Positions 2 to 30,533 of a DNA stretch of 32,000 nucleotides are shown here, piece after piece. Origin of the DNA: Cryobacterium sp. SO2. GTDB lineage: Bacteria; Actinomycetota; Actinomycetes; Actinomycetales; Microbacteriaceae. Every line of letters starts with the position of its first letter. Positions within the stretch are counted from its first letter, which is position 1. Both the position numbers and the translations under genes were made by a program. Where the stretch lies: NCBI RefSeq assembly GCF_026151165.2, contig NZ_CP117849.1:547258-579257 (forward strand), written 5' to 3'. The notes below the pieces were generated by a model, which worked only from the letters and a program-made list of their open reading frames with translations, ran no database searches and was not told where the DNA came from.

Positions 2-916
2 GAGGTGGCCGGCAGCCGCACCCAGCAGGCCCGCATCGGCATCCTCTTCGACTGGGACTCCTGGTGGGCGTCCGAGCTCGACTCGCACCCCACCGAGCTG
101 CTGCGCTACAAGGCCGAGGCCATGGCCTGGTACACCGCCGCGCTCGCGAACGGCCTGCAGGCCGACATCGTGCCGGCCCGCTCGGTGCTGGCCGGGCACG
201 GCCTGGCCGGTTACGACCTCGTCATCGCCCCGATGCTCTACCTGGTGCCGCAGGCGCTGGCGGATGCGCTCACCGACTACGCCCGCACCGGCGGCCACCT
301 GGTGGTCGGCGTGTTCTCCGGCATTGCCGACGCCGACGACCACATCCACCCCGGCGGCTACCCGGGCGCGTTCCGCGAGTTGCTCGGTGTGCGCGCGGAG
401 GAGTTCGGCGGCCTGCTCGCCGGCCAGACCGTGCGGCTCACCGGCGAGCTGCCGGCCGGGTCCACCGGTTCGCTGCTCACCCACGACGTCACCGTGCAGC
501 CCGACGTCGAGGTGCTCGCGCGCTTCGACGACGGCCCGTTCCCCGGCGTGCCGGCGATCACCAGCCGGATGCTACCGAGCCTCGCCGGCGCCGCCGGCCG
601 GGCCAGCTTCGTCGCCACGGTGCTCGACCCCGCCGCCCTCGCGGCGCTCGTCGGCCGGTTCGCGGCGCAGGCCGGCATCCAGTCATTGCTGCCGGAGGAG
701 GTGCACGGCACCGTGCAGCTCGCCGTGCGGCAGGGCGACACCCAGGACTACCTCTTTTACATCAACCACTCGGCGCGGGCGGTGACCGTGGCGCTCCGCC
801 CGGCCGACGGCCGGCTCAGTGCGCTCGACCTCGGCGGCAGCACTCTGGCCGCCGACACCCTGACCCTCCCGGCCACCGGCGTTGCCGTGCTCGGCCGCGC
901 ACGAACGGATCTTTGA
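2..916 (+). CDS. beta-galactosidase, GH42 family, C-terminal portion (5' end outside window)
   Basis: The frame is open from the window edge. The translation (ARIGILFDWDSWWASELDSHPT...YDLVIAPMLYLVP...GGHLVVGVFSGIAD...) matches the GH42 trimerisation/C-terminal domains as I know them. TGA at 914-916, 2 nt before the next ATG. Confidence 0.8.
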   Translation, partial: EVAGSRTQQARIGILFDWDSWWASELDSHPTELLRYKAEAMAWYTAALANGLQADIVPARSVLAGHGLAGYDLVIAPMLYLVPQALADALTDYARTGGHLVVGVFSGIADADDHIHPGGYPGAFRELLGVRAEEFGGLLAGQTVRLTGELPAGSTGSLLTHDVTVQPDVEVLARFDDGPFPGVPAITSRMLPSLAGAAGRASFVATVLDPAALAALVGRFAAQAGIQSLLPEEVHGTVQLAVRQGDTQDYLFYINHSARAVTVALRPADGRLSALDLGGSTLAADTLTLPATGVAVLGRARTDL

Positions 917-918
917 GC

Positions 919-2892
919 ATGGGCACCTTCGCGATCGGCGACACCGACTTCCTCCTCGACGGGCAGCCGTTCCAGGTGCTGGCCGGCGCCATCCACTACT
1001 TCCGGGTGCACCCGGACCACTGGGCCGACCGCATCCACAAGGCGAAGCTGATGGGCCTGAACACCATCGAGACCTATGTCGCCTGGAACGCGCACTCGCC
1101 CGCCCGCGGCGACTTCGACACCACCGGCCAGCTCGACCTGGCCCGGTTCCTCGACCTCATCGCCGCCGAGGGCCTGTACGCCATCGTGCGGCCCGGCCCG
1201 TTCATCTGCGCCGAGTGGGACAACGGGGGACTGCCCGGCTGGCTGTTCACCGACCCCGCCGTGGGCGTGCGCCGCAACGAACCGCTCTACATGGCGGCCG
1301 TGGCCGAGTACTTCGACCAGCTGCTGCCGATCGTGGCGTCCCGGCAGATCGACCGGGGCGGCCCCGTCATCCTCGTGCAGATCGAGAACGAGTACGGCGC
1401 CTACGGCAATGACAAGAGCTACCTGCGTGCCCTCGTGGAGCTCAACCGGGCCGGCGGCATCACGGTGCCGCTCACCACCATCGACCAACCCACCGACCAG
1501 ATGCTCTCCGACGGCAGCCTGCCCGAGCTGCACAAGACCGGCTCGTTCGGCTCTCGCGCCACCGAGCGCCTGGCCACCCTGCGCCGTCACCAGCCGACCG
1601 GCCCGCTGATGTGCGCCGAGTTCTGGAACGGCTGGTTCGACCACTGGGGCGCGCACCACCACACCACCTCCGCGGACGAGAGCGCCCGCGAGCTGGACGA
1701 CCTGCTCGCCACCGGCGCATCCGTGTCGCTGTACATGTTCACCGGCGGCACCAACTTCGGCTTCACCAACGGCGCCAACGACAAGGGCGTCTACCAGCCC
1801 ACCGTCACCTCCTACGACTACGACGCGCCCCTCTCCGAGAGCGGCGAGATCACGGCCAAGTACCTCGCCTTCCGCCAGGTGCTGGCCCGGTACGCGCCGG
1901 TGCCCGCCGAACTGCCCGCGCCCGCCACGGATGCGCCGGCCTTCACGGTGGCACTCGACGAGTCAGTCTCGCTCTGGGACGCGCTGCCCGAGCTGACCGA
2001 CACCGTCGCGCCGGCGGCGGCGCTCACCAGCAGCCCAGGAGTGCCCGCCGCATCCGGCCTGCCCAGCATCGCCGCCGCATCCGGCCTGCCCAGCATGGAT
2101 GCCCTCGGCCAGTACACGGGGTTCGCCCTGTATCGCAACCGGCTCACGCCGGGTGCCCGGGTGTTGTCGTTCGGCGAGGTGCGCGACCGCGCCCAGGTCT
2201 TCGTCGACGGCACCGCGGTGGGTGTGCTGCACCGCGACCACCACGACCGCTCGATCAGCCTGCCGCCGGGGGAGCGCCTCGACGTGCTCGTCGAAGACCA
2301 GGGCCGGGTCAACTACGGCCCGCGCATCGGCGAAGACAAGGGCCTGATCGGCCCGGCCACCCTCGACGGGGTGCAGCTCGGCGGCTGGCAGGTGCTGCCG
2401 CTGGATGTCGACGCTTTCGTCGCATCCGACAGCGCACTCTTCGCCGCGCAGCCGACCCACCGGGGCGCGGGGTCGCACGCCGTGGACCTGGACCTCGACG
2501 TGGATCTCGACCTCGCCGTGAACCTCACCCCCACCCCCACGCTCACCGCGCGGGCCACGGGTCCGAGCTCCACGGATGCCGCGGCCACCCTCACCCTGGT
2601 CCCGCCCGTCGACTCCGGGTCGCTCAGCGGTCCGGCGTTCGCGCGCGGCCGGTTCGACGCCCAGCCCGGCGTCGACCTGTTCCTCAGCACCGCCGGCTGG
2701 GGCAAGGGCCAGGCCTGGATCAACGGCTTCAACCTCGGCCGGTTCTGGGACCGCGGCCCGCAGACCACCCTCTACGTGCCCGGCCCGGCCTTGCGTGCGG
2801 AGAACGAGCTGGTCATCCTGTGCCTGCACGGCACCGAGAGCACCCTCGCCCGCTTCGTCTCCCGCCCCGACCTCGGCCACACCGACTTCTAA
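919..2892 (+). CDS. beta-galactosidase, GH35 family (657 aa)
   Basis: ATG at 919. The N-terminal catalytic domain reads FLLDGQPFQVLAGAIHYFRVHPDHWADRIHKAKLMGLNTIETYVAWNAHSP...PGPFICAEWDNGGLPGWL...QIENEYG, which is typical of GH35. The track ORF 64..2892 is the same frame read through from upstream. Confidence 0.9.
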   Translation: MGTFAIGDTDFLLDGQPFQVLAGAIHYFRVHPDHWADRIHKAKLMGLNTIETYVAWNAHSPARGDFDTTGQLDLARFLDLIAAEGLYAIVRPGPFICAEWDNGGLPGWLFTDPAVGVRRNEPLYMAAVAEYFDQLLPIVASRQIDRGGPVILVQIENEYGAYGNDKSYLRALVELNRAGGITVPLTTIDQPTDQMLSDGSLPELHKTGSFGSRATERLATLRRHQPTGPLMCAEFWNGWFDHWGAHHHTTSADESARELDDLLATGASVSLYMFTGGTNFGFTNGANDKGVYQPTVTSYDYDAPLSESGEITAKYLAFRQVLARYAPVPAELPAPATDAPAFTVALDESVSLWDALPELTDTVAPAAALTSSPGVPAASGLPSIAAASGLPSMDALGQYTGFALYRNRLTPGARVLSFGEVRDRAQVFVDGTAVGVLHRDHHDRSISLPPGERLDVLVEDQGRVNYGPRIGEDKGLIGPATLDGVQLGGWQVLPLDVDAFVASDSALFAAQPTHRGAGSHAVDLDLDVDLDLAVNLTPTPTLTARATGPSSTDAAATLTLVPPVDSGSLSGPAFARGRFDAQPGVDLFLSTAGWGKGQAWINGFNLGRFWDRGPQTTLYVPGPALRAENELVILCLHGTESTLARFVSRPDLGHTDF

Positions 2893-2975: not shown

Positions 2976-3002
2976 CGCCTGGTGCGCCTGGTGCGCCCGT
3001 TC

Positions 3003-3113
3003 CGCTGGTTGAGCTTGTCGAAGCCAGGTGACCCGGTCTCGCTGGTTGAGCTTGTCGAAACCAGGTGACCCAGTCTCGCTGGTTGAGCTTGTCGAAACCA
3101 GGTGACCCAGTCT
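3003..3113. repeat. family D tandem array, 3 x 37 bp (CGCTGGTTGAGCTTGTCGAAACCAGGTGACCCAGTCT)
   Basis: Units start at 3003, 3040 and 3077 with only 2-3 substitutions. Each unit holds a CTGGTT/AACCAG hairpin and a GGTGACC palindrome. Confidence 0.9.
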
Positions 3114-3198
3114 GCGGTCCGCGCCTCGTGTGTATCCGCGGTGCCCGCATCCGCGCGCCCTGATGCTCGCGACGCATCCCACGCCCCCTCACCCTGCC

Positions 3199-3268
3199 GA
3201 GTTGCCCCACTGCGGACGAGTTGCCCCGGCGCACCGGAGCAACTCGTCCGTAGTGGGGCAACTCGCGC
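3199..3268. repeat. family B ~70-bp nested palindrome, intergenic copy
   Basis: GAGTTGCCCCACTG[CGGACGAGTTGC cccggcgcaccgga GCAACTCGTCCG]TAGTGGGGCAACTC. It has a perfect 12-bp inner stem and a 13-bp outer stem. Confidence 0.9.
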
Positions 3269-3279
3269 GCCGGATGCCC

Positions 3280-4692
3280 TCAGCCGCGACCGCCCACAGG
3301 CGGGCGCCGGTCGGCCCAGGGCTGCACGCGCTCCAGCTGGGCGCACACCGCGATCACCAGCTCCTCCGAGTTCGCCGGCCCCACCACCTGGCCGCTGAGC
3401 GGCAGCCCGTCCACGCTGAACCCGGTCGGGATCGCCGCTGCCGGGTTGCCCAGCACGTTCCAGATCGACGTGAACGATGCCGTGGGCGTCGCCGCGGCCA
3501 TCGCTGCCCAGAAACCGCGCCCGTCGAGCTGGCCCACAGGCACGGCGGGAGTGGGGGTGGTGGGCATCAGCAGCAGGTCGATGCCGTCGAACAGGCTGGC
3601 CAGAAACCGCTCGCCGTCGGCGATGCCGCGCCGCTCGGCGGCCGCACTGAACGCCAGCAACGGCCGGGCGATCCGCACCATCGTGCGGGTGCGCTTCTCC
3701 AGCAGCCGCGGATGCTCCACCCGCGCAGCCTCATCGCTCACCCCGCCGAGAACCTGCAGCATGAACGGCAGGGCCAGCTTCGGGTACGCGGGGGTAACTT
3801 CCACGACCTCGTGGCCGAGGTCACGCAGCGCCCGAGCCGTCCGGTGCAGGGCCTCCGTGGTCTCGGCATCCGCGGCCGGGCCGCCGCCGGGGTTCTTCAC
3901 CGCGAGCCCGATGCGCAGCCGGGCCGGCGCGGTCGTGGCGGCGGCCGCCAACGATCCGGTCCACGGCTGCGCGGAGAACCGGTCGGCCGCGGTGCTGCCC
4001 GCGACGGCGTCGTAGATCAGGGCGCTGTCGGCCACGCTGCGGGTCAGCGGGCCGAGCACCCCGAGGGAGCGCCAGAGGTCGGCGTTGGGCGCGGCGCTGA
4101 TCCGGCCCCGCTGCGGCTTGAGGCCGAACAGCCCGCAGTAGCTCGACGGCAGCCGGATCGACCCGCCGCCGTCGCCGCCGATACCGGCCGGCACCATGCC
4201 GCTGGCCACCGCGGCCGCGGTGCCGCCGCTCGAGCCGGCGGGGGAGCGCAGCGGATTCCACGGATTCCGGGTGTACCCGTTGGCGCTGGTCTCGGTCCAC
4301 GGCCAGATCCCGAATTCGGGCATCCGGGTCTTGCCCACGATCACGGCGCCGGCCGCGCGCAGCCGGCGCACCAGCTCGCTGTCCGCCGCGGCGGACGACG
4401 TCACGGATGCGCCGCCGTACGCGGTCGGCAGTCCCGCCACGTCGTTCTCGTCCTTGATGGCGATCGGCACCCCGTGCAACGGCCCACGCAGCCGGCCCTC
4501 CGCCTGCTCCCGGTCCAGCTCGTCCGCCTCGGCGAGGGCCTCGGCGCCGCGCACCCACGCGAAGGCGTTGAGCACCGGGTCGAGCCGGCCGATGCGCTCC
4601 AGACTGTGCTGCACTACCTCCCGCGCCGTCACCTCCCCGGTCGCGATCAGATCCCGCAGTTCACCAACGCCCCGAAATTCCAGATCGACCAC
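3280..4692 (-). CDS. amidase (amidase-signature family, 470 aa)
   Basis: GTG start at 4692, preceded by AAGGGGGA. The Gly/Ser-rich amidase signature AGSSGGTAAAVASG...GGSIRLPSSYCGLFGLKP is present. Confidence 0.9.
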   Translation of the reverse strand: MVDLEFRGVGELRDLIATGEVTAREVVQHSLERIGRLDPVLNAFAWVRGAEALAEADELDREQAEGRLRGPLHGVPIAIKDENDVAGLPTAYGGASVTSSAAADSELVRRLRAAGAVIVGKTRMPEFGIWPWTETSANGYTRNPWNPLRSPAGSSGGTAAAVASGMVPAGIGGDGGGSIRLPSSYCGLFGLKPQRGRISAAPNADLWRSLGVLGPLTRSVADSALIYDAVAGSTAADRFSAQPWTGSLAAAATTAPARLRIGLAVKNPGGGPAADAETTEALHRTARALRDLGHEVVEVTPAYPKLALPFMLQVLGGVSDEAARVEHPRLLEKRTRTMVRIARPLLAFSAAAERRGIADGERFLASLFDGIDLLLMPTTPTPAVPVGQLDGRGFWAAMAAATPTASFTSIWNVLGNPAAAIPTGFSVDGLPLSGQVVGPANSEELVIAVCAQLERVQPWADRRPPVGGRG

Positions 4693-4905
4693 GACGTTCC
4701 CCCTTCAGGTGCGGATGCCCGCACGTGCGGATGCCCGCAAATCGCGGACACCACCGAACTCTGAGTTCATCCTGCCGTGCTGCCCCGCCGCTGCGGGCCT
4801 CCCACGGGTCCGGCATGTAAACGCTGGGCTCACCAGTGTTAAAGCCTTGTTTCGGGAGGGGGCCCGCACGCCGCCCCGGCGGTCGCGCCGGGCCCACTCC
4901 CGTGC

Positions 4906-4975
4906 CAACTGTTCCCCGTACGGACAATTGCGCCCGGTGTGCCGGGACCATTTGTCCGGAGCGGGCACAGTTGCG
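4906..4975. repeat. family A nested palindrome, copy 2
   Basis: CAACTGTTCCCCGTACGGACAATTGCGCCCGGTGTGCCGGGACCATTTGTCCGGAGCGGGCACAGTTGCG, upstream of dnaX. Confidence 0.85.
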
Positions 4976-5133: not shown

Positions 5134-7995
5134 GTGGTTACCGCCCTGTATCGCCGTTACCGGCCAGAGACTTTTGCCGAAATGATCGGTCAGTCACAGG
5201 TGACCGATCCGCTCATGACCGCCCTGCGCACCAACAGGGTCAATCATGCCTACCTCTTCAGCGGACCCCGCGGCTGTGGTAAGACCACCTCCGCGCGCAT
5301 CCTGGCCCGCTGCCTCAACTGTGCAGAGGGCCCCACCGACACCCCCTGCGGCGTCTGCCCCAGCTGCGTCGAGCTCTCCCGCGACGGCAGCGGCTCCCTC
5401 GACGTGGTCGAAATCGACGCGGCCAGCCACAACGGTGTCGACGACGCCCGCGACATCCGCGAACGCGCCATCTTCGCGCCGGCCCGCGACCGCTACAAGA
5501 TCTTCATCCTCGACGAGGCGCACATGGTCACCCCGCAGGGCTTCAACGCGCTGCTCAAGATCGTGGAAGAGCCGCCGGAACACGTGAAGTTCATCTTCGC
5601 CACGACCGAGCCCGAGAAGGTCATCGGCACCATCCGCTCGCGCACCCACCACTACCCGTTCCGGCTGGTGCCGCCCGCACCCATGCTCGACTACGTGCAG
5701 CAGCTCTGCGACAGCGAGCACATGAGCGTTGCCCCCGGCGTGCTGCCGCTCGTGGTGCGCGCCGGCGGCGGCTCGCCCCGCGACACCCTCTCGCTGCTCG
5801 ACCAGCTGATGGCCGGCTCCGAGACGGATGCCATCGAGTACGAACGCGCCGTGGCCCTGCTCGGCTACACCAACGCGGCCCTGCTCGACGACGCCATCGA
5901 CGCCATCGCCGCCCGCGACTCGTCCTCGGCGTTCGACGCCGTCGACCGGGTGATCCAGACCGGCCAGGACCCGCGCCGCTTCGTCGAAGACCTGCTCGAG
6001 CGCATGCGCGACCTCATCATCGTGGCCGCCACCAGCGCCGCCGGTGCCGCCGCGGTGCTGCGCGGCGTGCCGCAGGACGAACTCGACCGGATGGCCGTGC
6101 AGGCCGCCAAGTTCGGCCCGGCCGAGCTGAGCCGCACCGCCGACATCCTCAACGCCGCCCTCACCGAGATGACCGGCGCCACCTCGCCGCGCCTGCACCT
6201 CGAACTCATGATCGCCCGCGCGCTCATCCCCGCCACCGACGACACCACCCGCGGCGCGCTCGCCCGCGTCGAACGCCTCGAACGCCGCATCGGCGTCGAC
6301 GGCGGCCCCACGGATGCGCCGGCCCCGGCCGCGCCCGCCGCCTCGGCCCCGCGCACGCCCGCCGCCCCGCCCGCCGGAGCCCCGTCCGCGGCCCCAGCTT
6401 CGAGTGCCGCCGCGCCGGCCGCAACCTCCCCGGCCTCGTCGGCGCCCGCCCCGGCCGGCTCGGGCTGGGCCACTCGCGTACCCGGAGCCCCGGCCGCAGT
6501 CCCTATCGAAACTGCCGCCGCCGACCGAGAGGCCTCCGGCGCCGTTCCGGCCGGGGCCGCTGCGTCCGCTGGCGCATCCGCCGGCGCAGGTTCCACCCCA
6601 GCCGCGGGTTCCACCGCCGGTGCGGCTTCCGCCACCGGAACCCCTGCCGCGTCTGGCGCGTCAGCCACCGGGGCTGCCGGCGCCGGAGCATCCGCCGCCA
6701 GCGGCCCGGTCACGCCCGCCGCCAGCCCGGCCGAACCCGCCGCGCCGGCCGCAGCTCCCGCGCGCCCGGTGGGCCCGGTCACCCTGGCGCAGATCAAGGA
6801 TGCCTGGCCGCAGATCCTCGACGCCGTCAAGGAGGTCAAGCTCAGCGCCTGGCTCGTCGTGTACACCGCGCGCGTGCTCGACCTGCGCGGCGAAGACGTG
6901 CTCGTGCTGTCCTTCCCCAGCGAGCAGGACATGCAGGGCTTCAAGGCGCAGCAGGCCCCTGGCCAGGGTGTCAGCGAGTTCCTCCGCGGCGCCATCGTCA
7001 AGGTGCTCGGTCTGCGCGTGAAGTTCATCGCCCGCGCCGACTCCGAGGCCTTCCCCTCGAACACCGGGCACGCCCCGGGCTCCGCTCCCGCCGCCGACCT
7101 GCCCTCCTCCGGACCAGTTGCCCCGGTGCAGCAGGGCAACTCGTCCGCTCCGGGGCAACTCGCGGATGCGCCGTCCCCGACTCCCTCCCGCGCGGCGCCG
7201 ACGGATGCCTCCGCGTCAGCGGATGCGCCGTCACTGGGCAGCACCCCGCCGGCGTCAGGCGCCCCCACCGCCGTGCCGTCAGCCGGTTCGTCCGCCTTCG
7301 GCGAGTCGTCCAGCAGCGCCACCGCAAGCGCCGGCGCAGCCACCTCAAGCGCCGGCGCAGCCACCTCAAGCACCGCCACCGCCACGCTCGCACCGCCCGC
7401 CACCTCCACCGGCTGGGCAACGGTGGTGATTCCCGGATCCGCCGCCGCCCTGGCCGCAGCCGAGACGGCAGCGACCGAGCCGGCCAGCATCGCCTCCTCC
7501 GCCAACGCGTCGGTCGCGGGTTCCCCCAGCGCGGCAACGGCAAGCGCGCCTGCGGTCTCCGCACCCGTTACCGGCTCGCCGGTCGCAGACGTCGGCCAGG
7601 GCGGACGAGCCGCGGCGTCGCAGTCGGCCCCAGAGCCCGACTACGCCCCCGAGCCCGACTTCGAGCCGCCCTTCGACGAGGAGCCGCCGCCCTACGACGA
7701 CCTCCCGCCCGACCCGCAGTCCTTCTCCGGTCCGCCGGAGACCGGTCGCGATGCCCGCTCGGCCCCGCAGCAGGCGCCGCGCCAACAGCAGGCCCCCGGC
7801 CAGTCGGCACCACCGGCATCCGCCCCGACCGCGCCGAACGCATCCGCCCAGCGCGGCGGCGCCCCGGCCCGCCGCTCGCCCGCGTTCGCGGAAAAGCAGC
7901 GTTACGGCGAGGCCGTGGTGCGCGAGATCCTCGGCGCCACCTTCATCGAAGAGCAGCCGCACGACCCGATCTCGCGACAGAGGAACGACAACTAA
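5134..7995 (+). CDS. dnaX: DNA polymerase III subunit gamma/tau (about 953 aa, very long low-complexity C-terminal half)
   Basis: VVTALYRRYRPETFAEMIGQSQV, Walker A GPRGCGKTT, zinc module CLNCAEGPTDTPCGVCPSC, DEAHM. GTG 5134 is chosen by N-terminal homology; GTG 5110 is an alternative start. The track ORF start at 4939 is upstream read-through. Confidence 0.9.
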   Translation: MVTALYRRYRPETFAEMIGQSQVTDPLMTALRTNRVNHAYLFSGPRGCGKTTSARILARCLNCAEGPTDTPCGVCPSCVELSRDGSGSLDVVEIDAASHNGVDDARDIRERAIFAPARDRYKIFILDEAHMVTPQGFNALLKIVEEPPEHVKFIFATTEPEKVIGTIRSRTHHYPFRLVPPAPMLDYVQQLCDSEHMSVAPGVLPLVVRAGGGSPRDTLSLLDQLMAGSETDAIEYERAVALLGYTNAALLDDAIDAIAARDSSSAFDAVDRVIQTGQDPRRFVEDLLERMRDLIIVAATSAAGAAAVLRGVPQDELDRMAVQAAKFGPAELSRTADILNAALTEMTGATSPRLHLELMIARALIPATDDTTRGALARVERLERRIGVDGGPTDAPAPAAPAASAPRTPAAPPAGAPSAAPASSAAAPAATSPASSAPAPAGSGWATRVPGAPAAVPIETAAADREASGAVPAGAAASAGASAGAGSTPAAGSTAGAASATGTPAASGASATGAAGAGASAASGPVTPAASPAEPAAPAAAPARPVGPVTLAQIKDAWPQILDAVKEVKLSAWLVVYTARVLDLRGEDVLVLSFPSEQDMQGFKAQQAPGQGVSEFLRGAIVKVLGLRVKFIARADSEAFPSNTGHAPGSAPAADLPSSGPVAPVQQGNSSAPGQLADAPSPTPSRAAPTDASASADAPSLGSTPPASGAPTAVPSAGSSAFGESSSSATASAGAATSSAGAATSSTATATLAPPATSTGWATVVIPGSAAALAAAETAATEPASIASSANASVAGSPSAATASAPAVSAPVTGSPVADVGQGGRAAASQSAPEPDYAPEPDFEPPFDEEPPPYDDLPPDPQSFSGPPETGRDARSAPQQAPRQQQAPGQSAPPASAPTAPNASAQRGGAPARRSPAFAEKQRYGEAVVREILGATFIEEQPHDPISRQRNDN
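7096..7169 (+). repeat. family B nested palindrome embedded in-frame in dnaX
   Basis: GACCTGCCCTCCTCCGGACCAGTTGCCCCGGTGCAGCAGGGCAACTCGTCCGCTCCGGGGCAACTCGCGGATGC. Translated as ADLPSSGPVAPVQQGNSSAPGQLADA. Confidence 0.8.
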
Positions 7996-8595: not shown

Positions 8596-8664
8596 CCGCG
8601 CCCGCCCCGGCCCGGGCGCCCTGCGCCCGTCCCCGTCGCGCCCGCCGCGGCCCGGGTGCCGCGA

Positions 8665-8734
8665 CAACTGTTCCCCATGCGGACATCTGCGCCCGGTGTG
8701 CCGGCACCATTTGTCCGCTTCGGCAACACTTGTG
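8665..8734. repeat. family A nested palindrome, copy 3
   Basis: CAACTGTTCCCCATGCGGACATCTGCGCCCGGTGTGCCGGCACCATTTGTCCGCTTCGGCAACACTTGTG. Confidence 0.85.
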
Positions 8735-8805
8735 CCCGGATGCCCGGATGCCCGGATGCCCGGATGCCCGGATGCCCGGATGCCCGGATGCCCGGATGCC
8801 CGGAC
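8734..8805. repeat. octanucleotide microsatellite (GCCCGGAT) x 8 plus one variant unit
   Basis: Perfect units start at 8734, 8742, 8750, 8758, 8766, 8774, 8782 and 8790. The variant GCCCGGAC is at 8798. Confidence 0.95.
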
Positions 8806-8879
8806 GGGCACCTCGTGCGCCGCACGTCTGCCCGCATATAGCGCTCCACCGTGACACGAACCGGGCTTCTCCCCTCTAT

Positions 8880-9010
8880 GACTGGCCTATTTTGGCTAGT
8901 GCGGAGGCGCTCGCGACTAGCAAGAATGGGCCAGTCATCGAACCCGCGGAGATGACTGGCCCGGAATTGCTAGTGCGGAGGCGCTCACGACTAGCAAGAA
9001 TGGGCCAGTC
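8880..9010. repeat. family C: pair of ~57-bp hairpins (8880-8936, 8954-9010)
   Basis: The arms GACTGGCC(C/T)ATTTT(C/G)GCTAGT ... ACTAGCAAGAATGGGCCAGTC are conserved around a ~15-nt loop. The same arms recur at 25770-25910. Confidence 0.85.
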
Positions 9011-9116
9011 AGCGTCGGCGCGCGCACACTCCGTCACATGAACGACCGAGAATACGAACGCATTTAGGATGGGAACGCGGGATGTCTCCGCGTACCCGGA
9101 AGCCAGGAGTGCCCAC

Positions 9117-10412: not shown

Positions 10413-10486
10413 GCCGCGAACCACGCCCGGCCGCGCCCGCCCGGCAGCTGCTCCCCGAGCATCCGCCCCGAGGGTCCCGCGGCGAC

Positions 10487-10556
10487 CAACTGTTCCCGAA
10501 GCGGACATTTACGCCCGGTACGCCGGGACCATTTGTCCGCATCGGCAACAGTTGCG
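10487..10556. repeat. family A nested palindrome, copy 4
   Basis: CAACTGTTCCCGAAGCGGACATTTACGCCCGGTACGCCGGGACCATTTGTCCGCATCGGCAACAGTTGCG. Confidence 0.85.
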
Positions 10557-16047: not shown

Positions 16048-17220
16048 ATGCTGTTAGACGGACCGACCCTGCAAATGCTGAGCGGCCTGATCGTCATCCT
16101 GTGCGGGGTGTCATTCATCTTCAACACGGCGCTCAACCGCAACGACCCGCCCGGCCGGCTGTGGAGCCTGGCGTTCGTGGCGGGCATGATGGTGGCCGTC
16201 GGCTACGGCGTCTACATCGTCAGCGCGGATGCGTGGTGGTCGATCACCGTCGCCAACACCAGCTTGGTCATCGCCGTCGGCGCGCTCTGGAGCGGCTCCC
16301 GGGTGTACAACCTCCGCAGCTCCGGCTTCCTCGTAGTTGGCAGCCTCTCGGCGGTCGTGGGTGTCATCACCCTCGCGGCCGGCCCGGACGGCGGCGAATG
16401 GGCCGGAGCCGGCCCCCTCTGGCTGGTGGTGGCCGCGATGGGCGCCCTCGGCGGCTACGAGGCCCTCCGCGGCCGGTTGCGCCGCAACGTGAACGGACGC
16501 ATCCTCTCGATCGTGCTCTTCGTCGTGGCCGTGTTCTACGCGGCCCGGGCGGTCGAGTTCTTCGTCGCCGGCGTCGACAGCCCCACCTTCCTCGCCTACT
16601 TCGACTCCGGCACTACCTCCATCCTCAACATGGCGCTCATCGTCACGGCGTGCATCGCCGTGTCGATCCTGCGTGCAGAGGGTGTCGGCAGCAGCGCCGT
16701 CGGCGACATCACGGTGGGCATCCACTCCGCAGCCGGCGTGCTCTCGGCCACGTCGTTCCGGCAGGCCGCCGCCGACCACCTGGAGCGGGGCAAACGCTCC
16801 CAGCTCGGCCTGGCCCTGATCGGCGCCGACATCGACAACCTGCCCGAGATCAACACGGCGTTCGGCCGGTCCGCCGGCGACGAGGCCATCGCCCGCTTCG
16901 CCGACACGCTGCGCAGCAGTGCGCCGCTGCTCGCGCAGATCGGGCACCCGGCCGCCGGCCGGTTCTTCGTGCTCGCCGCGGTCGGCTCCGCCTCCGAGGC
17001 TCGCACGATCACCGAGCGCATCCAGAACGCCCTCGTGGACGGCCCGCTGGGGGAGTCGTACCAGATCCGCCTCACGGCGAGTTTCGGCATCGCGGACACC
17101 TTCGACCACGGCTACGACCTCGCCGAGCTCACCGAGGCGACGACCCTGGCGATCGGCATCGTCAAGCAGCGCGGCGGCAACGACATCGCCGTCGTCACCG
17201 AGGCCGCCAACCCGGTCTAG
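16048..17220 (+). CDS. membrane protein with a degenerate GGDEF domain (390 aa)
   Basis: ATG follows AGGGGGA. The first ~210 aa are polytopic, followed by a GGDEF fold (LALIGADIDNLPEINTAFGRSAGDEAI...). The signature reads AAGRFF (about 16951-16968) and no RxxD I-site is present. Confidence 0.8.
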   Translation: MLLDGPTLQMLSGLIVILCGVSFIFNTALNRNDPPGRLWSLAFVAGMMVAVGYGVYIVSADAWWSITVANTSLVIAVGALWSGSRVYNLRSSGFLVVGSLSAVVGVITLAAGPDGGEWAGAGPLWLVVAAMGALGGYEALRGRLRRNVNGRILSIVLFVVAVFYAARAVEFFVAGVDSPTFLAYFDSGTTSILNMALIVTACIAVSILRAEGVGSSAVGDITVGIHSAAGVLSATSFRQAAADHLERGKRSQLGLALIGADIDNLPEINTAFGRSAGDEAIARFADTLRSSAPLLAQIGHPAAGRFFVLAAVGSASEARTITERIQNALVDGPLGESYQIRLTASFGIADTFDHGYDLAELTEATTLAIGIVKQRGGNDIAVVTEAANPV

Positions 17221-17233
17221 CGATGCGCCCGCC

Positions 17234-17304
17234 CGCTGGTTGAGCGTGTCGAAACCCGGTGACCCGCCCGCTGGTTGAGCCTGTCGAAACCCGGTGAGCC
17301 GTCA
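17234..17304. repeat. family D tandem array, 2 x 35 bp (CGCTGGTTGAGC(G/C)TGTCGAAACCCGGTGA)
   Basis: Units start at 17234 and 17269, between convergent genes. Confidence 0.85.
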
Positions 17305-17315
17305 CGGCCCACGTT

Positions 17316-19913: not shown

Positions 19914-19938
19914 CCGCCCCCGCCTCCCGCTGGGTTTC

Positions 19939-20335
19939 CGCTGGTCGAGCTTGTCGAGACCCCGTGACGTGCGTATGTGTCGCGAGTTCGGCTCGCCGGG
20001 TCTCGACGGGCTCGACCAGCGGAGGGGTCACCTCCCGCGCAGATGGCCGCGACGTGCTTGCGGTTCGCCCCCACGTCGCTGGTCGAGCTTGCCGAGACCC
20101 CGTGACGTGCGTGTGTGTCGCGAGTTCGGCTCGCCGGGTCTCGACGGGCTCGACCAGCGGAGGGGTCACCTCCCGCGCAGATCGCCGCGACGTGCCTGCG
20201 GTTCGAGCCCATCTCGCTGGTCGAGCTTGTCGAGACCCCGTGACGTGCGCGCGTGTCGCGAGTTCGGCTCACCGGGTCTCGACAGGCTCGACCAGCGGAG
20301 GGGTCACCTCCCGCGCAGAAGGCCGCGCTCAACGG
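19939..20335. repeat. composite family D tandem array, 3 x 138 bp
   Basis: Units start at 19939, 20077 and 20215 and are nearly identical. Each holds 23-nt inverted arms CGCTGGTCGAGCTTGTCGAGACC / GGTCTCGACGGGCTCGACCAGCG and a GGAGG..CCTCC hairpin. Confidence 0.92.
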
Positions 20336-20339
20336 CAAA

Positions 20340-20380
20340 CATCCGCCCCTCGTGATCGAAACGAAGGGCGGATGCTTTCA
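20340..20380. terminator. hairpin terminator candidate between convergent operons
   Basis: CATCCGCCC (20340-20348) pairs with GGGCGGATG (20366-20374). It is followed by CTTTC on the plus strand and TTTGCC on the minus strand. Confidence 0.45.
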
Positions 20381-22646: not shown

Positions 22647-24125
22647 GTGAATTTACAACCGAAGGTCGATGTCGCCCTGATCGGTGGGGGCATCATGAGC
22701 GCCACTCTCGCCACCCTGCTCAGCGAATTGCAGCCAGACTGGAACATCCAGGTCTACGAGCGCCTGGGCGAGCTCGCCCAGGAGAGTTCGAACCCGTGGA
22801 ACAACGCCGGAACCGGCCATGCCGCGCTTTGCGAGCTCAACTACATGCCGCAGGCGCCCGACGGCTCCGTCACGCCGGAGAAGGCCGTGGCCATCAACGA
22901 GCAGTTCCAGATCAGCCGCCAGCTCTGGGCGCACCTGGTGGAGACCGGCGTGTTGCCCGAGCCGGAGAAGTTCATCAACTCCACCCCGCACATGACCTTC
23001 GTGCACGGCGCCTCCAACGTGGACTACCTGCGCAAGCGCCGTGACGCTCTCGCCGACCAGCCGCTGTTCGCCGGCCTCGAATACAGCGAGGACCCGGCCG
23101 TGATCGGTCAGTGGACGCCGCTGCTCACCAAGAAGCGCGCCGCCAAGCAGAAGATCGCCGCCACCCGCATCGCCTCCGGCACCGACGTGGACTTCGGCGC
23201 CGTCACCCGCTACCTCTTCGACTCGCTCAAGAAGCGTGGCGTGGATGTGCACGTCAACCAGCAGGTCACCTCCCTCAAGCAGCTCGAGGACGGCTCCTGG
23301 CGGCTCAAGCTGCTCAGCCTGGTGGGCCGGTACACCAACACGGTCGAGGCCAAGTTCGTCTTCGTCGGCGCCGGCGGCGGAGCCCTCGCGCTGCTGCAGA
23401 AGAGCGGCATCCCCGAGATCAAGGGCTTCGGCGGTTTCCCGATCAGCGGCCAGTTCCTGCGCACCTCCAACCCGGCGATCGTGGCCCAGCACCAGGCCAA
23501 GGTCTACGGCAAGGCCGCCGTGGGGGCCCCGCCGATGTCGGTGCCGCACCTCGACACCCGGGTAGTGGATGGCGAGACTTCACTTTTGTTCGGCCCGTTC
23601 GCCGGCTTCAGCCCCAAGTTCCTCAAGCGCAGCACCTGGTTCGACCTGCCGTTCTCGGTGCGCCCGCACAACCTGGTGCCGATGCTCGCCGTGGCGAAGA
23701 ACAACTTCGGCCTGATGAAGTACCTGATCGGCGAGGTCTTCGCCTCGCGAAAGGCCAAGCTCGACGCGCTGCGCGAGTTCATGCCCACCGCCCAGGCCAA
23801 GGACTGGGAGCTGATCACCGCCGGGCAGCGCGTGCAGGTGATGAAGAAGGACGCCAAGGCCGGCGGCGTGCTGCAGTTCGGCACCGAGGTCATCACCTCC
23901 GCCGACGGCAGCATCGCGGGCTTGCTCGGGGCGTCACCCGGAGCATCCACCGCGGCGCCGATCATGGTCGACCTGTTGCAGCGCTGTTTCCCGGGGGAGT
24001 ACTCCCGTTGGGAGCCGCGCCTGCGCGAGATGATCCCCAGCCTGGGCACCAAGCTCAGCGACGACCCCGCCGCTGCGGCCGCCTCCCTGGCCGCCACCGC
24101 AGCGACTCTGCACCTCACGGCCTAG
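22647..24125 (+). CDS. mqo: malate:quinone oxidoreductase (492 aa)
   Basis: FAD fold DVALIGGGIMSATLATLL, the block NAGTGHAALCELNY, and full-length similarity to Mqo as I know it. Confidence 0.93.
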   Translation: MNLQPKVDVALIGGGIMSATLATLLSELQPDWNIQVYERLGELAQESSNPWNNAGTGHAALCELNYMPQAPDGSVTPEKAVAINEQFQISRQLWAHLVETGVLPEPEKFINSTPHMTFVHGASNVDYLRKRRDALADQPLFAGLEYSEDPAVIGQWTPLLTKKRAAKQKIAATRIASGTDVDFGAVTRYLFDSLKKRGVDVHVNQQVTSLKQLEDGSWRLKLLSLVGRYTNTVEAKFVFVGAGGGALALLQKSGIPEIKGFGGFPISGQFLRTSNPAIVAQHQAKVYGKAAVGAPPMSVPHLDTRVVDGETSLLFGPFAGFSPKFLKRSTWFDLPFSVRPHNLVPMLAVAKNNFGLMKYLIGEVFASRKAKLDALREFMPTAQAKDWELITAGQRVQVMKKDAKAGGVLQFGTEVITSADGSIAGLLGASPGASTAAPIMVDLLQRCFPGEYSRWEPRLREMIPSLGTKLSDDPAAAAASLAATAATLHLTA

Positions 24126-24133
24126 GTCGCATC

Positions 24134-24188
24134 CGCTGGTCGGGCCTGTCGAGACCTCGCGACAGGATCTCGACAAGCTCGATCAGCG
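24134..24188. repeat. family D single palindromic copy
   Basis: CGCTGGTCGGGCCTGTCGAGA ... TCTCGACAAGCTCGATCAGCG, immediately after the mqo stop. Confidence 0.8.
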
Positions 24189-25765: not shown

Positions 25766-25769
25766 CCGA

Positions 25770-25910
25770 GACTGGCCCATTTTCGCTAGTTCTCACCCCT
25801 CCCGCACTAGCGATTCTGGGCCAGTCATCGTTGCGCCCCGCGCGCTACCCCGGGACTGGCCCATTTTCGCTAGTTGAGTGGGCCCGGGCACTAGCAAATC
25901 CGGGCCACTC
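25770..25910. repeat. family C: second pair of ~57-bp hairpins (25770-25826, 25854-25910)
   Basis: The arms match 8880-9010 (GACTGGCCCATTTTCGCTAGT ... ACTAGC..A..TGGGCCAGTC), but the loop sequences differ. Confidence 0.85.
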
Positions 25911-25950
25911 CAGCCGTTCCTGCCCACCGTGCTCGTCCCTACTCGCAGTA

Positions 25951-27405: not shown

Positions 27406-27579
27406 TGCCCCGCCGTGGTTAGCACTCCAACGAGCGCCCGCGCACCTCGCCGCTCCATCCGTCTCATGCCCACCGCGACCCTGGGTTCTGCCCCCACGCG
27501 CGCTGGGAGGCGCCACACCCCCAGCCGGGTGGCCGCCGAATCCCGCACACCTGAGATAATCAGAGGCGGAGAGGGCGCA

Positions 27580-28986
27580 ATGTCACTTGGGTTACCCGGC
27601 CACCTGGTGCAGGCCACGCTCAGCCGCGCCCTGGCCCGCGCCAGCCACTGGTTCGGCCTTGTCTGCCTGGCCGGCGCGCTGGCGTCGGTGCTGGCGCTGA
27701 GCATGTTCCCCGTCACCGACCGGCTGCAGCTCACCGTCGCGGCGATCCTCGGCATGGGCGCCCTGCTCGCGCTCCTCGCCCGCTGGCGCACGGTGCCGCT
27801 CACCATCGCCTACCTCGTGCTCGGCGCCGCCTGCACCTACCTGTTCACCGGCGCGGTGCTGGGCATGCCCGGCGTGTTCTCGTCCTCGGACATGTTCCTC
27901 ATCTCGCTGCCCAAGATGGCCCTGATCATGGTCGGCGGCGCCGGTTCCGGCGCGCTCGTGGGCGTGCTGTGGAGCACCCTCGGGTTCCTCCTCGCCGAGA
28001 TCGCCGCCACCCTGGCCGTGGCGCAGACCGCCGTGCCCGACCGGCCCGACGTGTTCACCATCGTCACCTACCTCGTGCTCGTGGGCGTGATGCTGCTCGA
28101 CGGCCTCACCCGCCGCACCGGCCGCGCCGCCCAGCCGGCCATCCACAAGGCGGTGCAAGACGACGAGTCCCGCACCCTGCGCCACGACTTCGACGTGCGG
28201 GCGATCGCGCTGATGCACGACACCACCCTCAACCAGCTTGTTTCCGTGGCCCGCGCCAAGCCCGGCCCGCTCAGCCGCGGCCTCGAGGCCGGCATCCGCG
28301 AAACCCTGCACACCCTCGCCGACCGCGACTGGCTCACCCACGTCGACGAACGCACCGGCGCCGCGCCCGCCGGCAGCGACGGTTGGTTGGGCAGCGCCGT
28401 GTTCCGCGCCATCGACCGCAGCCGAGACCGCGGCTTGGTCATCGACATCACCGGCGACAAGGATGCGCTCGCCCGCCTTGCCCCCGAAAGCGACCGGGAA
28501 CTCGGCCTCGCCGTTCAACAGTGCCTGGTGAACGTCCTCCAGCACTCCGGCATCGCTTCCGCCGAGGTGGTCATCGACGCCGACGACGAGAACGTGTCGG
28601 TGATGGTGCTCGACGCCGGCACCGGCTTCATGGAATCCGAGACCGGCAGCGACCGGCTCGGCCTGCGCCAGTCGGTGCGCAAGCGCATCGAGCGCCTCGG
28701 CGGCTCCGTGCAGATCTGGTCGCGCCCCGGCGCCGGCACCTCGGTGCTGCTCACCCTGCCCGCCCCGGCGCCCGCCCCCGCGGTCTCCGCCGAGTTGCCC
28801 ATTTCCGGACCAGTTGCCCCGGTACAGCAGGGCAACTCGTCCGCGGCGGGGCAACTCGCGGATGCCCTCTCCACCGCCGATGCCCCCACGCTCCGGACCC
28901 CAGCGGGCCCCGACACACCTACGACCCCCGGGACCTCGGCCCCGGACGCAGAGCCCGCGACCCCCACTGGCCCGGTGACCCCGTGA
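27580..28986 (+). CDS. membrane sensor histidine kinase, HisKA_3/NarX-like (468 aa)
   Basis: ATG 27580 follows GGCGGAGAGGG. About 170 aa of TM helices, the H-box-like ALMHDTTLNQL, and the ATPase part CLVNVLQHS...LDAGTGF...GLRQSVRKRIERLGG...GAGTSV. The C-terminal tail carries a family B repeat. Confidence 0.75.
   Translation: MSLGLPGHLVQATLSRALARASHWFGLVCLAGALASVLALSMFPVTDRLQLTVAAILGMGALLALLARWRTVPLTIAYLVLGAACTYLFTGAVLGMPGVFSSSDMFLISLPKMALIMVGGAGSGALVGVLWSTLGFLLAEIAATLAVAQTAVPDRPDVFTIVTYLVLVGVMLLDGLTRRTGRAAQPAIHKAVQDDESRTLRHDFDVRAIALMHDTTLNQLVSVARAKPGPLSRGLEAGIRETLHTLADRDWLTHVDERTGAAPAGSDGWLGSAVFRAIDRSRDRGLVIDITGDKDALARLAPESDRELGLAVQQCLVNVLQHSGIASAEVVIDADDENVSVMVLDAGTGFMESETGSDRLGLRQSVRKRIERLGGSVQIWSRPGAGTSVLLTLPAPAPAPAVSAELPISGPVAPVQQGNSSAAGQLADALSTADAPTLRTPAGPDTPTTPGTSAPDAEPATPTGPVTP
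28792..28865 (+). repeat. family B nested palindrome embedded in-frame in the kinase tail
   Basis: GAGTTGCCCATTTCCGGACCAGTTGCCCCGGTACAGCAGGGCAACTCGTCCGCGGCGGGGCAACTCGCGGATGC. Translated as AELPISGPVAPVQQGNSSAAGQLADA. Confidence 0.85.
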
Positions 28987-30533
28987 CCGCCCGCCGCGCC
29001 ACCCAGCAGCGCCTCGACCCGCTGGGCACCCTCGCCGCCTGGCCGCTGGCGCCGGGCCTCGCCGCCGTGGTGCTCTGCTACTCCGTGATCGCCACCGTGC
29101 TGCAGTCCGACCAGGTGCAGAACCCCCTGCTGGCCACCCTCGCCGTGCTCGCCATGGCCGCCGCCGCCGGCACCCTGGTGATCGCCACCCAGCCGGCGCA
29201 CTCCCCGTTCGGCCGCCAGGCGCACATCGTGATGGTGACCCTGGCCGTGCTCGGTTACCTCTTCGAGGCGCTCAGCCGCTGGGGCAGCAACGAACTCGTG
29301 CAAGACGACTTCGGCCCCATCAGCATCGGCCTGCTCCTGCTGGCCCTGGCCCCCTACCGGCCCTGGCGCGAGATCGCCCTCTCCGGCGCGATCGCCAGCG
29401 TCATCGCGATCGCCATCACCCTGCCGCAAGCCGGCACCTTCCGCATCGACGTGCCCGTGGCGGTCTACGCCATCGTGTCGGTCGTGCAGATCCTCGCGCC
29501 CGCCGCCGCCGGCGCCGCCTACTCCCGCCGGGTCGTCACGTCCATCCTCGCCTGGCAGACGGATGCGCGCCGCGCCATCGTCGCCCGCACCGAGGAGGCC
29601 CGCGGCCAGCTGGCCCGGGCCGTGGTGGAGCAGCAGGTCACCGCGCTCAAGTCCGGGGTGATCCCGTTCCTCACCGACGTGCTCGAGCGCGGCACCGTCA
29701 CCGCCCTCGACATCGCCCAGGCCGGCCAGCTGGCCGCCGAGGTGCGCCGCACCCTCGTGGCCGAGATCGACCGCACCTGGCTGGACTCCGTCGTCACCCG
29801 CGAACGAGCCGCCCTCGCCGAACGCGGCACTCCCGGCCTGCTCGTCGTGGCTGACCCCGAGCACCGCGCCACCGTGTTCGGGGCCGAACAACGCGCCGCC
29901 ACCGCGGCCCTGATCGGCGCCCTCTGCGCCGCCCCCGGTTTCGACCCGCACAGCCTGGTGGTGCAGATCACCGGCTCGCCCCAGCCGCGCACGCCCGGCG
30001 CCCGCTCGCGGCCGGCCCCTTCCGCCGACGTGCCCACCTCCGCACGAGTTGCCCCGGCGCAGCGGAGCAACTCGTCCGCACCGGGGCACCTCGCGGCACC
30101 GGCCCCCAGCCCCGGCGGCCGCCCGGCACCGGCCCCGTCCGCCCACCTGCCCACGTCCGCACGAGTTGCCCCGCCGCAGCGGAGCAACTCGTCCGCACCG
30201 GGGCACCTCGCGGATGCGCACGCCCCCGCACTCGGCCAGACGCCGCTGGCCATCCTCACCGGCCCGCCCGCCCCGGCCCAGTTCGACACCATCACCCTGC
30301 AGGCCGCGCTCGACGTGCCGCCGCGCAAGGTGCGGGCGCTGCTGCGCCCCTACCTGGGCGTCATCCGGGTGGTCTTCGGCAACGTGCGCGTCACCGTGCG
30401 GCGGCCCTCGCTCACCATCGAGTTCGACGCCGTGCGCGAGAACACCTCCAGCGCCGCCGCGCCCACGGCCCTCGCCACCCCGGCCACCCCCATCGGTGTG
30501 CGCGCGAACAAAGCTCCGCGCCAAGTACGCTGA
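28983..30533 (+). CDS. membrane protein of unknown function, translationally coupled to the kinase (516 aa)
   Basis: GTG 28983 overlaps the kinase TGA (GTGA). About 190 aa of TM helices, then a helical and mixed region that I cannot assign to a family. The track ORF start at 27969 is off-gene read-through. Confidence 0.6.
   Translation: MTARRATQQRLDPLGTLAAWPLAPGLAAVVLCYSVIATVLQSDQVQNPLLATLAVLAMAAAAGTLVIATQPAHSPFGRQAHIVMVTLAVLGYLFEALSRWGSNELVQDDFGPISIGLLLLALAPYRPWREIALSGAIASVIAIAITLPQAGTFRIDVPVAVYAIVSVVQILAPAAAGAAYSRRVVTSILAWQTDARRAIVARTEEARGQLARAVVEQQVTALKSGVIPFLTDVLERGTVTALDIAQAGQLAAEVRRTLVAEIDRTWLDSVVTRERAALAERGTPGLLVVADPEHRATVFGAEQRAATAALIGALCAAPGFDPHSLVVQITGSPQPRTPGARSRPAPSADVPTSARVAPAQRSNSSAPGHLAAPAPSPGGRPAPAPSAHLPTSARVAPPQRSNSSAPGHLADAHAPALGQTPLAILTGPPAPAQFDTITLQAALDVPPRKVRALLRPYLGVIRVVFGNVRVTVRRPSLTIEFDAVRENTSSAAAPTALATPATPIGVRANKAPRQVR
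30027..30218 (+). repeat. two family B copies (30027-30096, 30144-30218), 117 bp apart, in-frame within the membrane protein gene
   Basis: The core CGCACGAGTTGCCCCG(G/C)CGCAGCGGAGCAACTCGTCCGCACCGGGGCACCTCGCGG occurs twice. Translated as SARVAP(A/P)QRSNSSAPGHLA. Confidence 0.85.

Follow-up and report, generated by a model that had tools for sequence, protein, structure and literature searches.

The window analysed here is a stretch of 32,000 nucleotides (nt) from Cryobacterium sp. SO2, an actinobacterium with 70% GC and an assembly consisting of a single contig of 4,097,436 bp. Besides recR and an amidase gene, whose translations are identical to WEO77951.1 and WEO77949.1, respectively, it holds dnaX, the product of which has the clamp-loader Pfam domains PF13177, PF12169 and PF22608 and is labelled by NCBI as "DNA polymerase III subunit gamma and tau". 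Within dnaX lies a short palindromic repeat, with its core at 7095-7162, that an earlier note on this DNA had quoted, with its letters exact, at 7096-7169 and had claimed to be a nucleotide-level copy of an intergenic element at 3199-3268 sitting in an essential gene without breaking its frame. Both parts of that claim were borne out. The dnaX segment and the intergenic copy at 3198 show 78% complementarity across 77 nt, the five copies in the window align without gaps at a mean column identity of 84%, and the open reading frame (ORF) is identical to an intact protein of 953 residues (WEO77950.1), with NCBI annotating the gene as uninterrupted. The element encodes ADLPSSGPVAPVQQGNSSAPGQLADA, i.e., DnaX residues 654-679 (A654-A679), and the tryptic peptide expected for this segment is ADSEAFPSNTGHAPGSAPAADLPSSGPVAPVQQGNSSAPGQLADAPSPTPSR. 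Its site is a hypervariable, low-complexity linker between the ...LGLRVKFIAR block, a weak match to PF20964 (DnaX_C), and the conserved GWATVVIPGS motif; all Microbacteriaceae DnaX proteins examined have a hypervariable linker after the ...LG(L/I)(R/K)VKFIAR block. The GC content of third codon positions (GC3) on the two sides of the element is 0.94 and 0.81, i.e., coding usage on both. The other genic copies in the window lie in a sensor histidine kinase and a hypothetical membrane protein (Table 1), and all three SO2 host proteins are intact in the NCBI annotation.

Table 1. Coordinates of dnaX, of the element copies in the window and of the in-frame copies on metagenome contig L051 (last two rows, in positions of that contig)
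Feature	Position	Strand	Remarks
dnaX coding sequence	5134-7995	+	GTG start; translation of 5134-7992 identical to WEO77950.1, 953 aa
dnaX copy, first 11-mer	7095-7105	+	CGACCTGCCCT (degenerate)
dnaX copy, second 11-mer	7114-7124	+	CCAGTTGCCCC
dnaX copy, third 11-mer	7133-7143	+	AGGGCAACTCG
dnaX copy, fourth 11-mer	7152-7162	+	GGGGCAACTCG
dnaX copy, weak palindromic extension	to about 7169		GCGGATGC
Intergenic copy	3198-3265	.	14 nt past the stop of the amidase gene (3280-4692, minus strand)
Kinase-tail copy	28791-28858	+	in frame in sensor histidine kinase WEO77964.1 (27580-28986)
Membrane-protein copy 1	30026-30093	+	in frame in hypothetical membrane protein WEO77965.1 (28983-30533)
Membrane-protein copy 2	30143-30210	+	in frame in WEO77965.1
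ArsA copy, first event	519-586		in frame
ArsA copy, second event	783-850		in frame

The repeated unit is a nested palindrome of 68 nt, CGAGTTGCCCC-N8-CGAGTTGCCCC-N8-GGGGCAACTCG-N8-GGGGCAACTCG, in which the starts of the 11-mers are spaced 19 nt apart, and conservation stops 3 nt beyond this core on each side (C at -3, G at +3), giving an element of about 74 nt. With at most one mismatch allowed, the 11-mer GGGGCAACTCG has 17 matches in the window against 1.4 expected, a count that none of 100 shuffles reached. All 17 fall within five composite elements (starting at 3198, 7095, 28791, 30026 and 30143), and there are no solo ends. In the full hairpin, an outer stem of 10 bp and an inner stem of 16 bp are separated by a 5x5 internal loop. 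The statement in the earlier note that the stems were preserved in the dnaX copy held for the pairing, as eight of the ten outer pairs and 14 of the 16 inner ones are kept, but less so for the strength of the fold: at -42.9 kcal/mol (z = -2.6; better than 197 of 200 shuffles) it is weaker than the near-perfect hairpin of the intergenic copy at 3198-3265 (-71.1 kcal/mol; z = -11). The same tendency is seen in the family, the median hairpin energy being -49.5 kcal/mol for genic and -56.6 kcal/mol for intergenic copies (P = 0.027). Across the alignment, pairing in the full hairpin reaches 80.6% of cells versus 34-44% when the partner columns are slid. No covariation was detected in the hairpin, shuffles pairing as well as the real alignment, and in 39-62 of 74 copies the 5-nt spacers do not pair; it is because the spacer columns are mostly unpaired and do not covary that the structure is drawn with a 5x5 loop and not as one continuous stem. 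Mismatched spacer pairs recur among copies (e.g., left CGTTC with right CAGGT), a hint that the copies descend from asymmetric masters. An Rfam scan gave nothing at gathering thresholds and, when relaxed, only non-specific long-hairpin matches to precursors of eukaryotic miRNAs, far under the cut-offs.

The extent of the family was explored with a 32-nt diagnostic motif, AGTTGCCCC-N11-GCAACTCGTCCG, which fits all five window copies and for which, by our own calculation, about 0.3 chance matches are expected in 596 Gb. Among genomes of 185,579 species the motif occurred at 32 loci, every one of them in Cryobacterium: nine in C. lactosi, seven each in C. arcticum and C. adonitolivorans, four in the metagenome-assembled genome RYN_54, three in Cryobacterium sp. 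N22 and two in C. inferilacus. With 35 further loci in a scan of metagenomes, the repeat extends well beyond the window, as the earlier note had presumed, and the family is Cryobacterium-specific. An nhmmer model of the element found 80 copies in 69 distinct flank contexts within 470 kb of collected sequence, and each full copy showed the same architecture of four 11-mers. A search of a plasmid collection returned no match, and a literature survey of incomplete coverage turned up no account of a family of this kind in Cryobacterium, Microbacteriaceae or Actinobacteria.

Genes around the copies were called by codon-position GC (GC3 >= 0.82-0.84, with GC3 > GC1 > GC2), doubtful cases being checked by translation. 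Most copies (~85%) proved to be intergenic, typically 3-40 nt past stop codons, and the genic share of the sampled copies was ~10-15%. Where both neighbouring genes were called, 17 copies lay between convergent, eight between tandem and two between divergent genes (the divergent cases being one locus counted twice), and copies with a single called neighbour were also mostly at gene 3' ends. Such a strong bias to sites just 3' of stops and to convergent pairs is what would be seen if the palindrome were a functional element of host DNA or RNA, e.g., a protein-binding site, a stabiliser of mRNA 3' ends or a terminator that does without a U-tract, in which case the dnaX copy might be regulatory (internal attenuation, decoupling of recR, or a shortened DnaX). 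That the dnaX copy folds better than nearly all of its shuffles would also fit. For a rho-independent terminator the GC-rich hairpin is present, but no U-tract was found: there is no terminator-like site in the window between 2800 and 7400, and the element flanks are G/C-rich. The hairpins inside genes are, moreover, the weakened ones, and the position of the element is past the DnaX_C region and does not coincide with the gamma/tau boundary. A programmed -1 frameshift, the signature of which is a stimulatory hairpin with a slippery heptamer 5-9 nt upstream and the outcome a truncated gamma form, was considered and rejected. The sole upstream X XXY YYZ heptamer, C CCG GGC, is GC-rich and too distant, ending ~16-20 nt before the hairpin, and the alternative frames past it stay open for 264 and 1876 nt. 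As the element is missing from the dnaX of other Cryobacterium (below), no conserved regulation of that gene rests on it. Overall, we consider a host function of this kind unlikely for the palindrome, although the pattern of conservation described below keeps it in view.

After removal of spurious ORFs, nine copies from six independent events remained inside bona fide genes. SO2 accounts for three of the events, i.e., the single copy in dnaX, the copy in the kinase tail, which has an orthologous counterpart in N22 (L002; 83% blastn identity to window 27532-29659), and the two copies in the membrane protein, which count as a single event. There, copy 2 came from tandem duplication of a 117-nt (39-codon) unit (29977-30093 and 30094-30210, 85% identical). 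The kinase copy lies in a Pro/Thr/Ala-rich C-terminal tail, ~9 codons past the end of the conserved kinase domain. A fourth event placed an element in a DrrA-type ABC ATPase of C. arcticum (L030), with a metagenome orthologue (L060) carrying it at the same site, and the last two are separate insertions into one ArsA arsenical-pump ATPase on a metagenome contig (L051), a protein that scores 692 bits against TIGR04291 (cut-off 650). On the same contig, a third copy (1721-1788) lies 10 nt past the ArsA stop, between convergent genes. Copies on L001, L012, L019, L037, L058 and L070, at first candidates for the genic class, were set aside when their translations showed antisense-type ORFs or 5' extensions.

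The earlier note had reported that the four genic copies of the window share one orientation and one reading frame and fit a single peptide pattern. This was found to be so, and the same frame is used by every independent internal insertion found elsewhere: all nine genic copies are read in frame A, as (A)ELPxSG(R/P)VAPxxxGNSSAxGQLA. For six of six events to share a frame has P ~0.004 under equal frame odds, the first event setting the frame. Few stop codons occur in any of the three frames (6, 4 and 14 of 76 readings), and hence they do not account for the use of a single one. Frames B and C always encode Cys (SCP), and frame C has four Arg in addition. In frame A one codon, T(G/C)C, is read as Cys in none of nine genic but in 65 of 130 intergenic readings, and as Ser in eight of nine genic versus 31 of 130 intergenic readings. 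Given this absence of Cys from the genic copies, the shared orientation is largely an avoidance of that Cys codon. In several genic copies TTG has become CTG or GTG and CAA has become CAG or CAC, and the dnaX and kinase copies share a change of CGA to CCA. Codon changes of this sort, together with the weaker genic hairpins, would be expected if the copies are translated and have been filtered or ameliorated as coding sequence, although this falls short of direct proof of translation.

It could be asked whether the peptide, and not the DNA, is what spreads, i.e., whether ELPxSGxVAPxxxGNSSAxGQLA is a selected module (a short linear motif or flexible spacer) distributed among proteins, with the palindrome secondary to it. 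The single frame of all six independent internal insertions, the depletion of Cys and Arg in genic copies and the retention of two insertions in orthologues of different lineages could each be read in this way. But the depletion is equally expected from simple filtering of harmful variants, no peptide is made from the large intergenic majority, the host proteins are functionally unrelated and carry the peptide in linkers or tails, and close relatives manage without it. Furthermore, a four-sequence frame-A profile matched just two proteins among 1.84 billion representatives, another kinase-tail fragment and a truncated ORF. A search of 5.8 billion proteins with a three-frame profile of the element peptide gave nothing at E <= 1, the segments being too short for a database of that size. 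A selected peptide module is, in our judgement, improbable.

Three ORFs that run into an element deserve mention beside the internal copies. P0252 (115 residues) runs from an apparently real N-terminus into the element in frame A, with Cys, and then into junk-like sequence, and an ORF at L019 5414-5481 does the same in frame B; both may be genes truncated or extended at the 3' end by the element. In C. adonitolivorans (L007 474-541), an element takes the place of the last ~7 codons of a GH35 beta-galactosidase gene. Uninterrupted GH35 genes (window 2840-2892; L033 1440-1470) have at that point a target, GCCGACCTCGGCC, that resembles the terminal 11-mer of the element. The amidase gene of the window is missing between GH35 and dnaX in both C. 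adonitolivorans and C. breve.

Whether the encoded segments were acquired or are ancestral was judged from orthologous genes. The element peptide occurs in none of 229 DnaX homologues retrieved, the outcome that the proposal of an insertion needed. Among these, the proteins of Cryobacterium sp. TMT1-2-1, C. roopkundense and C. breve span the linker and that of C. tagatosivorans (partial) enters it, all without the element. At the DNA level, nhmmer found no element in the dnaX genes of C. roopkundense and C. breve even at E <= 10. A DnaX search with the C-terminal half as query was dominated by low-complexity words and recovered the DnaX_C block alone. The C. breve gene (complete genome CP075584; L033 ~1540-1750) is apparently frameshifted near codon 60, with no gene called there, and is either a pseudogene or the product of a sequencing error.

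Similar comparisons were available for the other hosts. A close relative represented by a metagenome contig (L071) and a Logan contig (L072) has 88% nucleotide identity to the SO2 kinase body and the same gene order. Its kinase (L071/P0249) is 40 residues shorter and has no element, its membrane protein (L071/L072), 49 residues shorter, has neither copy, and nhmmer on the L071/L072 kinase and membrane-protein genes found no element even at E <= 10. SO2, N22 and L071 are roughly equidistant from each other, and therefore the kinase copy may reflect a single gain in the line of SO2 and N22 or a loss in L071, both being possible. The kinase tails are too diverged for insertion boundaries to be placed exactly at the nucleotide level. 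When the L051 ArsA was compared with a solved structure (9nbl; ~70% identity in the flanks), ~29 and ~25 extra residues were found exactly at the two elements. From these comparisons, the genic copies appear as gains and not as ancestral peptides.

Draft contigs of the closest relatives of SO2 end where the low-complexity region of dnaX begins, and the DnaX proteins of TMB3-1-2, C. arcticum, C. lactosi and C. frigoriphilum (P0138, P0139, P0141 and P0145) are annotated as "partial", with ~410-450 residues. This breakage of related assemblies within the same region might raise the suspicion that the dnaX copy of SO2 is itself an artefact, a repeat misplaced into a low-complexity gene during sequencing or assembly. 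We think this very improbable, as the SO2 assembly is one 4.10-Mb contig, the dnaX copy has substitutions of its own and is in frame, flanked on either side by dnaX codon usage, and comparable in-frame copies are present in independent genomes and metagenomes.

How the copies move is less apparent than where they are found. Among 75 copies, no direct repeat of 2-8 nt that would indicate a target-site duplication was detected at boundary offsets 0-8 (the best being 4 of 75, for 3-mers), and a Pfam scan of window proteins showed no transposase domain. Ten groups of copies share flanks across genomes and thus sit at orthologous sites. At 12 orthologous pairs the outer 11-mers, which lie outside the search pattern and whose divergence is unbiased by how copies were found, differ by 7.1%, as compared with 27.1% for the spacers and loop (P = 2.5e-8) and ~24% for the flanks; the constraint is seen in two genic orthologous pairs as well. 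It is on this point that the label "selfish" given to the element in the earlier note goes further than the evidence, the 11-mers being conserved in place at orthologous sites. The low divergence of the 11-mers also speaks for the host-functional element considered above, and the lack of covariation in the spacers would then point to recognition of sequence over bare structure. By analogy with REP/RAYT systems (REP, repetitive extragenic palindromic), the constraint suggests sequence-specific recognition by some factor, which would act in trans on the 11-mers. More tentatively, and with considerable doubt, it can be proposed that the 11-mers are under purifying selection in place, even within coding regions, as recognition sites for a putative actinobacterial protein. 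Candidates for such a protein would be a factor that binds DNA or RNA and a transposase-like replicator with no relation to the known GTAG-REP/RAYT pairs.

The precedent named for these copies in the earlier note was the Rickettsia palindromic element (RPE), and this stands as an analogy. In PMC10969869 and PMC3733652, which summarise the work of Ogata et al. (2000, 2002), RPEs are described as dispersed palindromes of ~100-150 nt found between genes and in frame in unrelated, functional-looking genes, with one conserved peptide per family and, in some families, nearly half of the copies genic. The Cryobacterium element is like them in being an in-frame palindrome that encodes a family-specific peptide (here in nine copies from six events), in its insertion at tolerated protein sites and in that one gene can hold two insertions. 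It differs in its host, a free-living 70%-GC actinobacterium and not a reduced alpha-proteobacterial parasite, in its size (68-74 nt), in its two direct and two inverted 11-mers with a 19-nt period and in its lower genic share, as well as in a diagnostic motif found in Cryobacterium only, the RPE consensus sequences not having been aligned directly.

The precedent is, however, wider than Rickettsia. Intragenic REP dimers (GTAG- and CGTC-tagged) encode 20-30 residues in several phyla, many of them in genes for replication and repair (Di Nocera et al. 2013, PMC3733652). The REP unit is an imperfect palindrome of 20-40 nt with stems of 5-13 bp and an unpaired GTAG or CGTC tag; REPs prefer positions downstream of ORFs in convergent or unidirectional arrangement, the CGTC class has no known transposase dedicated to it, and neither class was reported from Actinobacteria in that survey (PMC3733652). 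The downstream-of-ORF bias and the inverted dimer that can fold into one long hairpin are shared by the Cryobacterium element. Unlike a REP, each of its arms is a direct repeat of the 11-mer and not a hairpin on its own, its stems are of 10 and 16 bp, its consensus has no GTAG, and CGTC/GACG is paired within the inner stem and is not an unpaired tag. The REPIN-RAYT system (Bertels and Rainey 2011, PMC3116915) offers a further likeness in its inverted doublets, long hairpins, conserved blocks with variable spacers, and persistence at orthologous sites across related species (PMC3116915), the difference again being that the repeated unit here is an 11-mer direct repeat and not a REP hairpin. Lastly, MITEs (miniature transposable elements with inverted repeats), such as ERIC, BOX, QMITE1 and those of Anabaena, are known within genes, where in-frame fusions are "not unusual" (PMC10969869). 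They resemble the Cryobacterium repeats as small non-coding repeats that make translational fusions on landing in ORFs, but the latter have no target-site duplication, no distinct terminal inverted repeats around an internal region and no known parental insertion sequence. The Cryobacterium family thus fails the defining features of RPEs, tagged REPs and MITEs, yet behaves like all three. In-frame palindromic repeats were already known, and the actinobacterial case is a new example of a known phenomenon; the novelty claimed in the earlier note for high-GC actinobacteria, for which we found no prior description, is narrower than it implied in view of the REP dimers (PMC3733652) and MITE fusions (PMC10969869).

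The palindrome in dnaX is a copy of the Cryobacterium interspersed repeat, and the evidence taken as a whole makes it likely that this copy was gained in the DnaX linker and is translated as a tolerated passenger. The normal home of the family is a few bases past stop codons, especially between convergent genes, and copies sometimes end up within ORFs. Those genic copies that persist are ones that keep the frame and fall in disordered linkers, loops or tails, and that are read in the sole frame yielding a Cys-free peptide of ~24-26 residues rich in Pro, Gly, Ser and Asn. In SO2, one copy would have arrived in the hypervariable DnaX linker when a mobile or copied element inserted there. Most likely this copy is translated and, as a tolerated passenger, probably neutral. 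Its weaker outer stem and its TTG to CTG and CGA to CCA changes would then reflect drift as coding sequence after insertion.

Several observations sit less comfortably with this account and must be set against it. The empty sites are in fast-evolving, low-complexity linkers, where neither the exact boundaries nor the length of an insertion can be defined, and the consensus, at 74 nt, is not divisible by 3. Contig ends interrupt dnaX in the closest relatives, which therefore give no date for the insertion. In C. adonitolivorans the GH35 C-terminal fusion uses frame C, with a stop 41 codons on, which limits the single-frame rule to internal insertions as distinct from C-terminal fusions. With neither a transposase nor a target-site duplication found, the case for mobility is drawn from the dispersed presence/absence distribution only. 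Finally, 11-mers that diverge about four times more slowly than the spacers are a poor fit to a purely neutral passenger.

The palindrome is not the only repeat in the window. A second intergenic family of ~109 nt occurs at 2864-2972, 4865-4973, 8624-8732 and 10446-10554, in both orientations and as mutually inverted pairs. A third, a 63-nt palindrome (GATGACTGGCCC...GGGCCAGTCATC), occurs as adjacent pairs in the recR-aspartokinase spacer (8878-8940 and 8952-9014) and downstream of a major facilitator superfamily (MFS) transporter gene (25768-25830 and 25852-25914). In addition, ~37-nt hairpin units (GCTGGTTGAGCTTGTCGAAACCAGGTGACCC) form intergenic tandem arrays at 2987-3113, 17218-17305, 19923-19975, 20199-20251 and 24118-24170, and a threefold tandem array of 138 nt (19939-20352) contains such units. 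An 8-nt microsatellite, TGCCCGGA, with ~9-10 repeats (8733-8812), lies just downstream of recR.

These findings extend in-frame "protein-coding palindromes" to free-living, high-GC Actinobacteria. The intergenic copies, the internal in-frame copies and the empty sites together amount to a natural experiment that shows which frames and codon variants survive in proteins, and it is one that includes an essential replication protein, DnaX. In practical terms, contig breaks and dnaX annotations marked as "partial" in draft genomes of Cryobacterium fall at these repeats and at the low-complexity dnaX linker. In the conservation of the 11-mers at orthologous sites there is a hint of a recognition system undescribed for Microbacteriaceae. 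If the 11-mers are indeed recognition sites, then the high-GC Gram-positives would have a REPIN-like replicator system that persists vertically, and one that also equips essential proteins, DnaX among them, with ready-made linker peptides.

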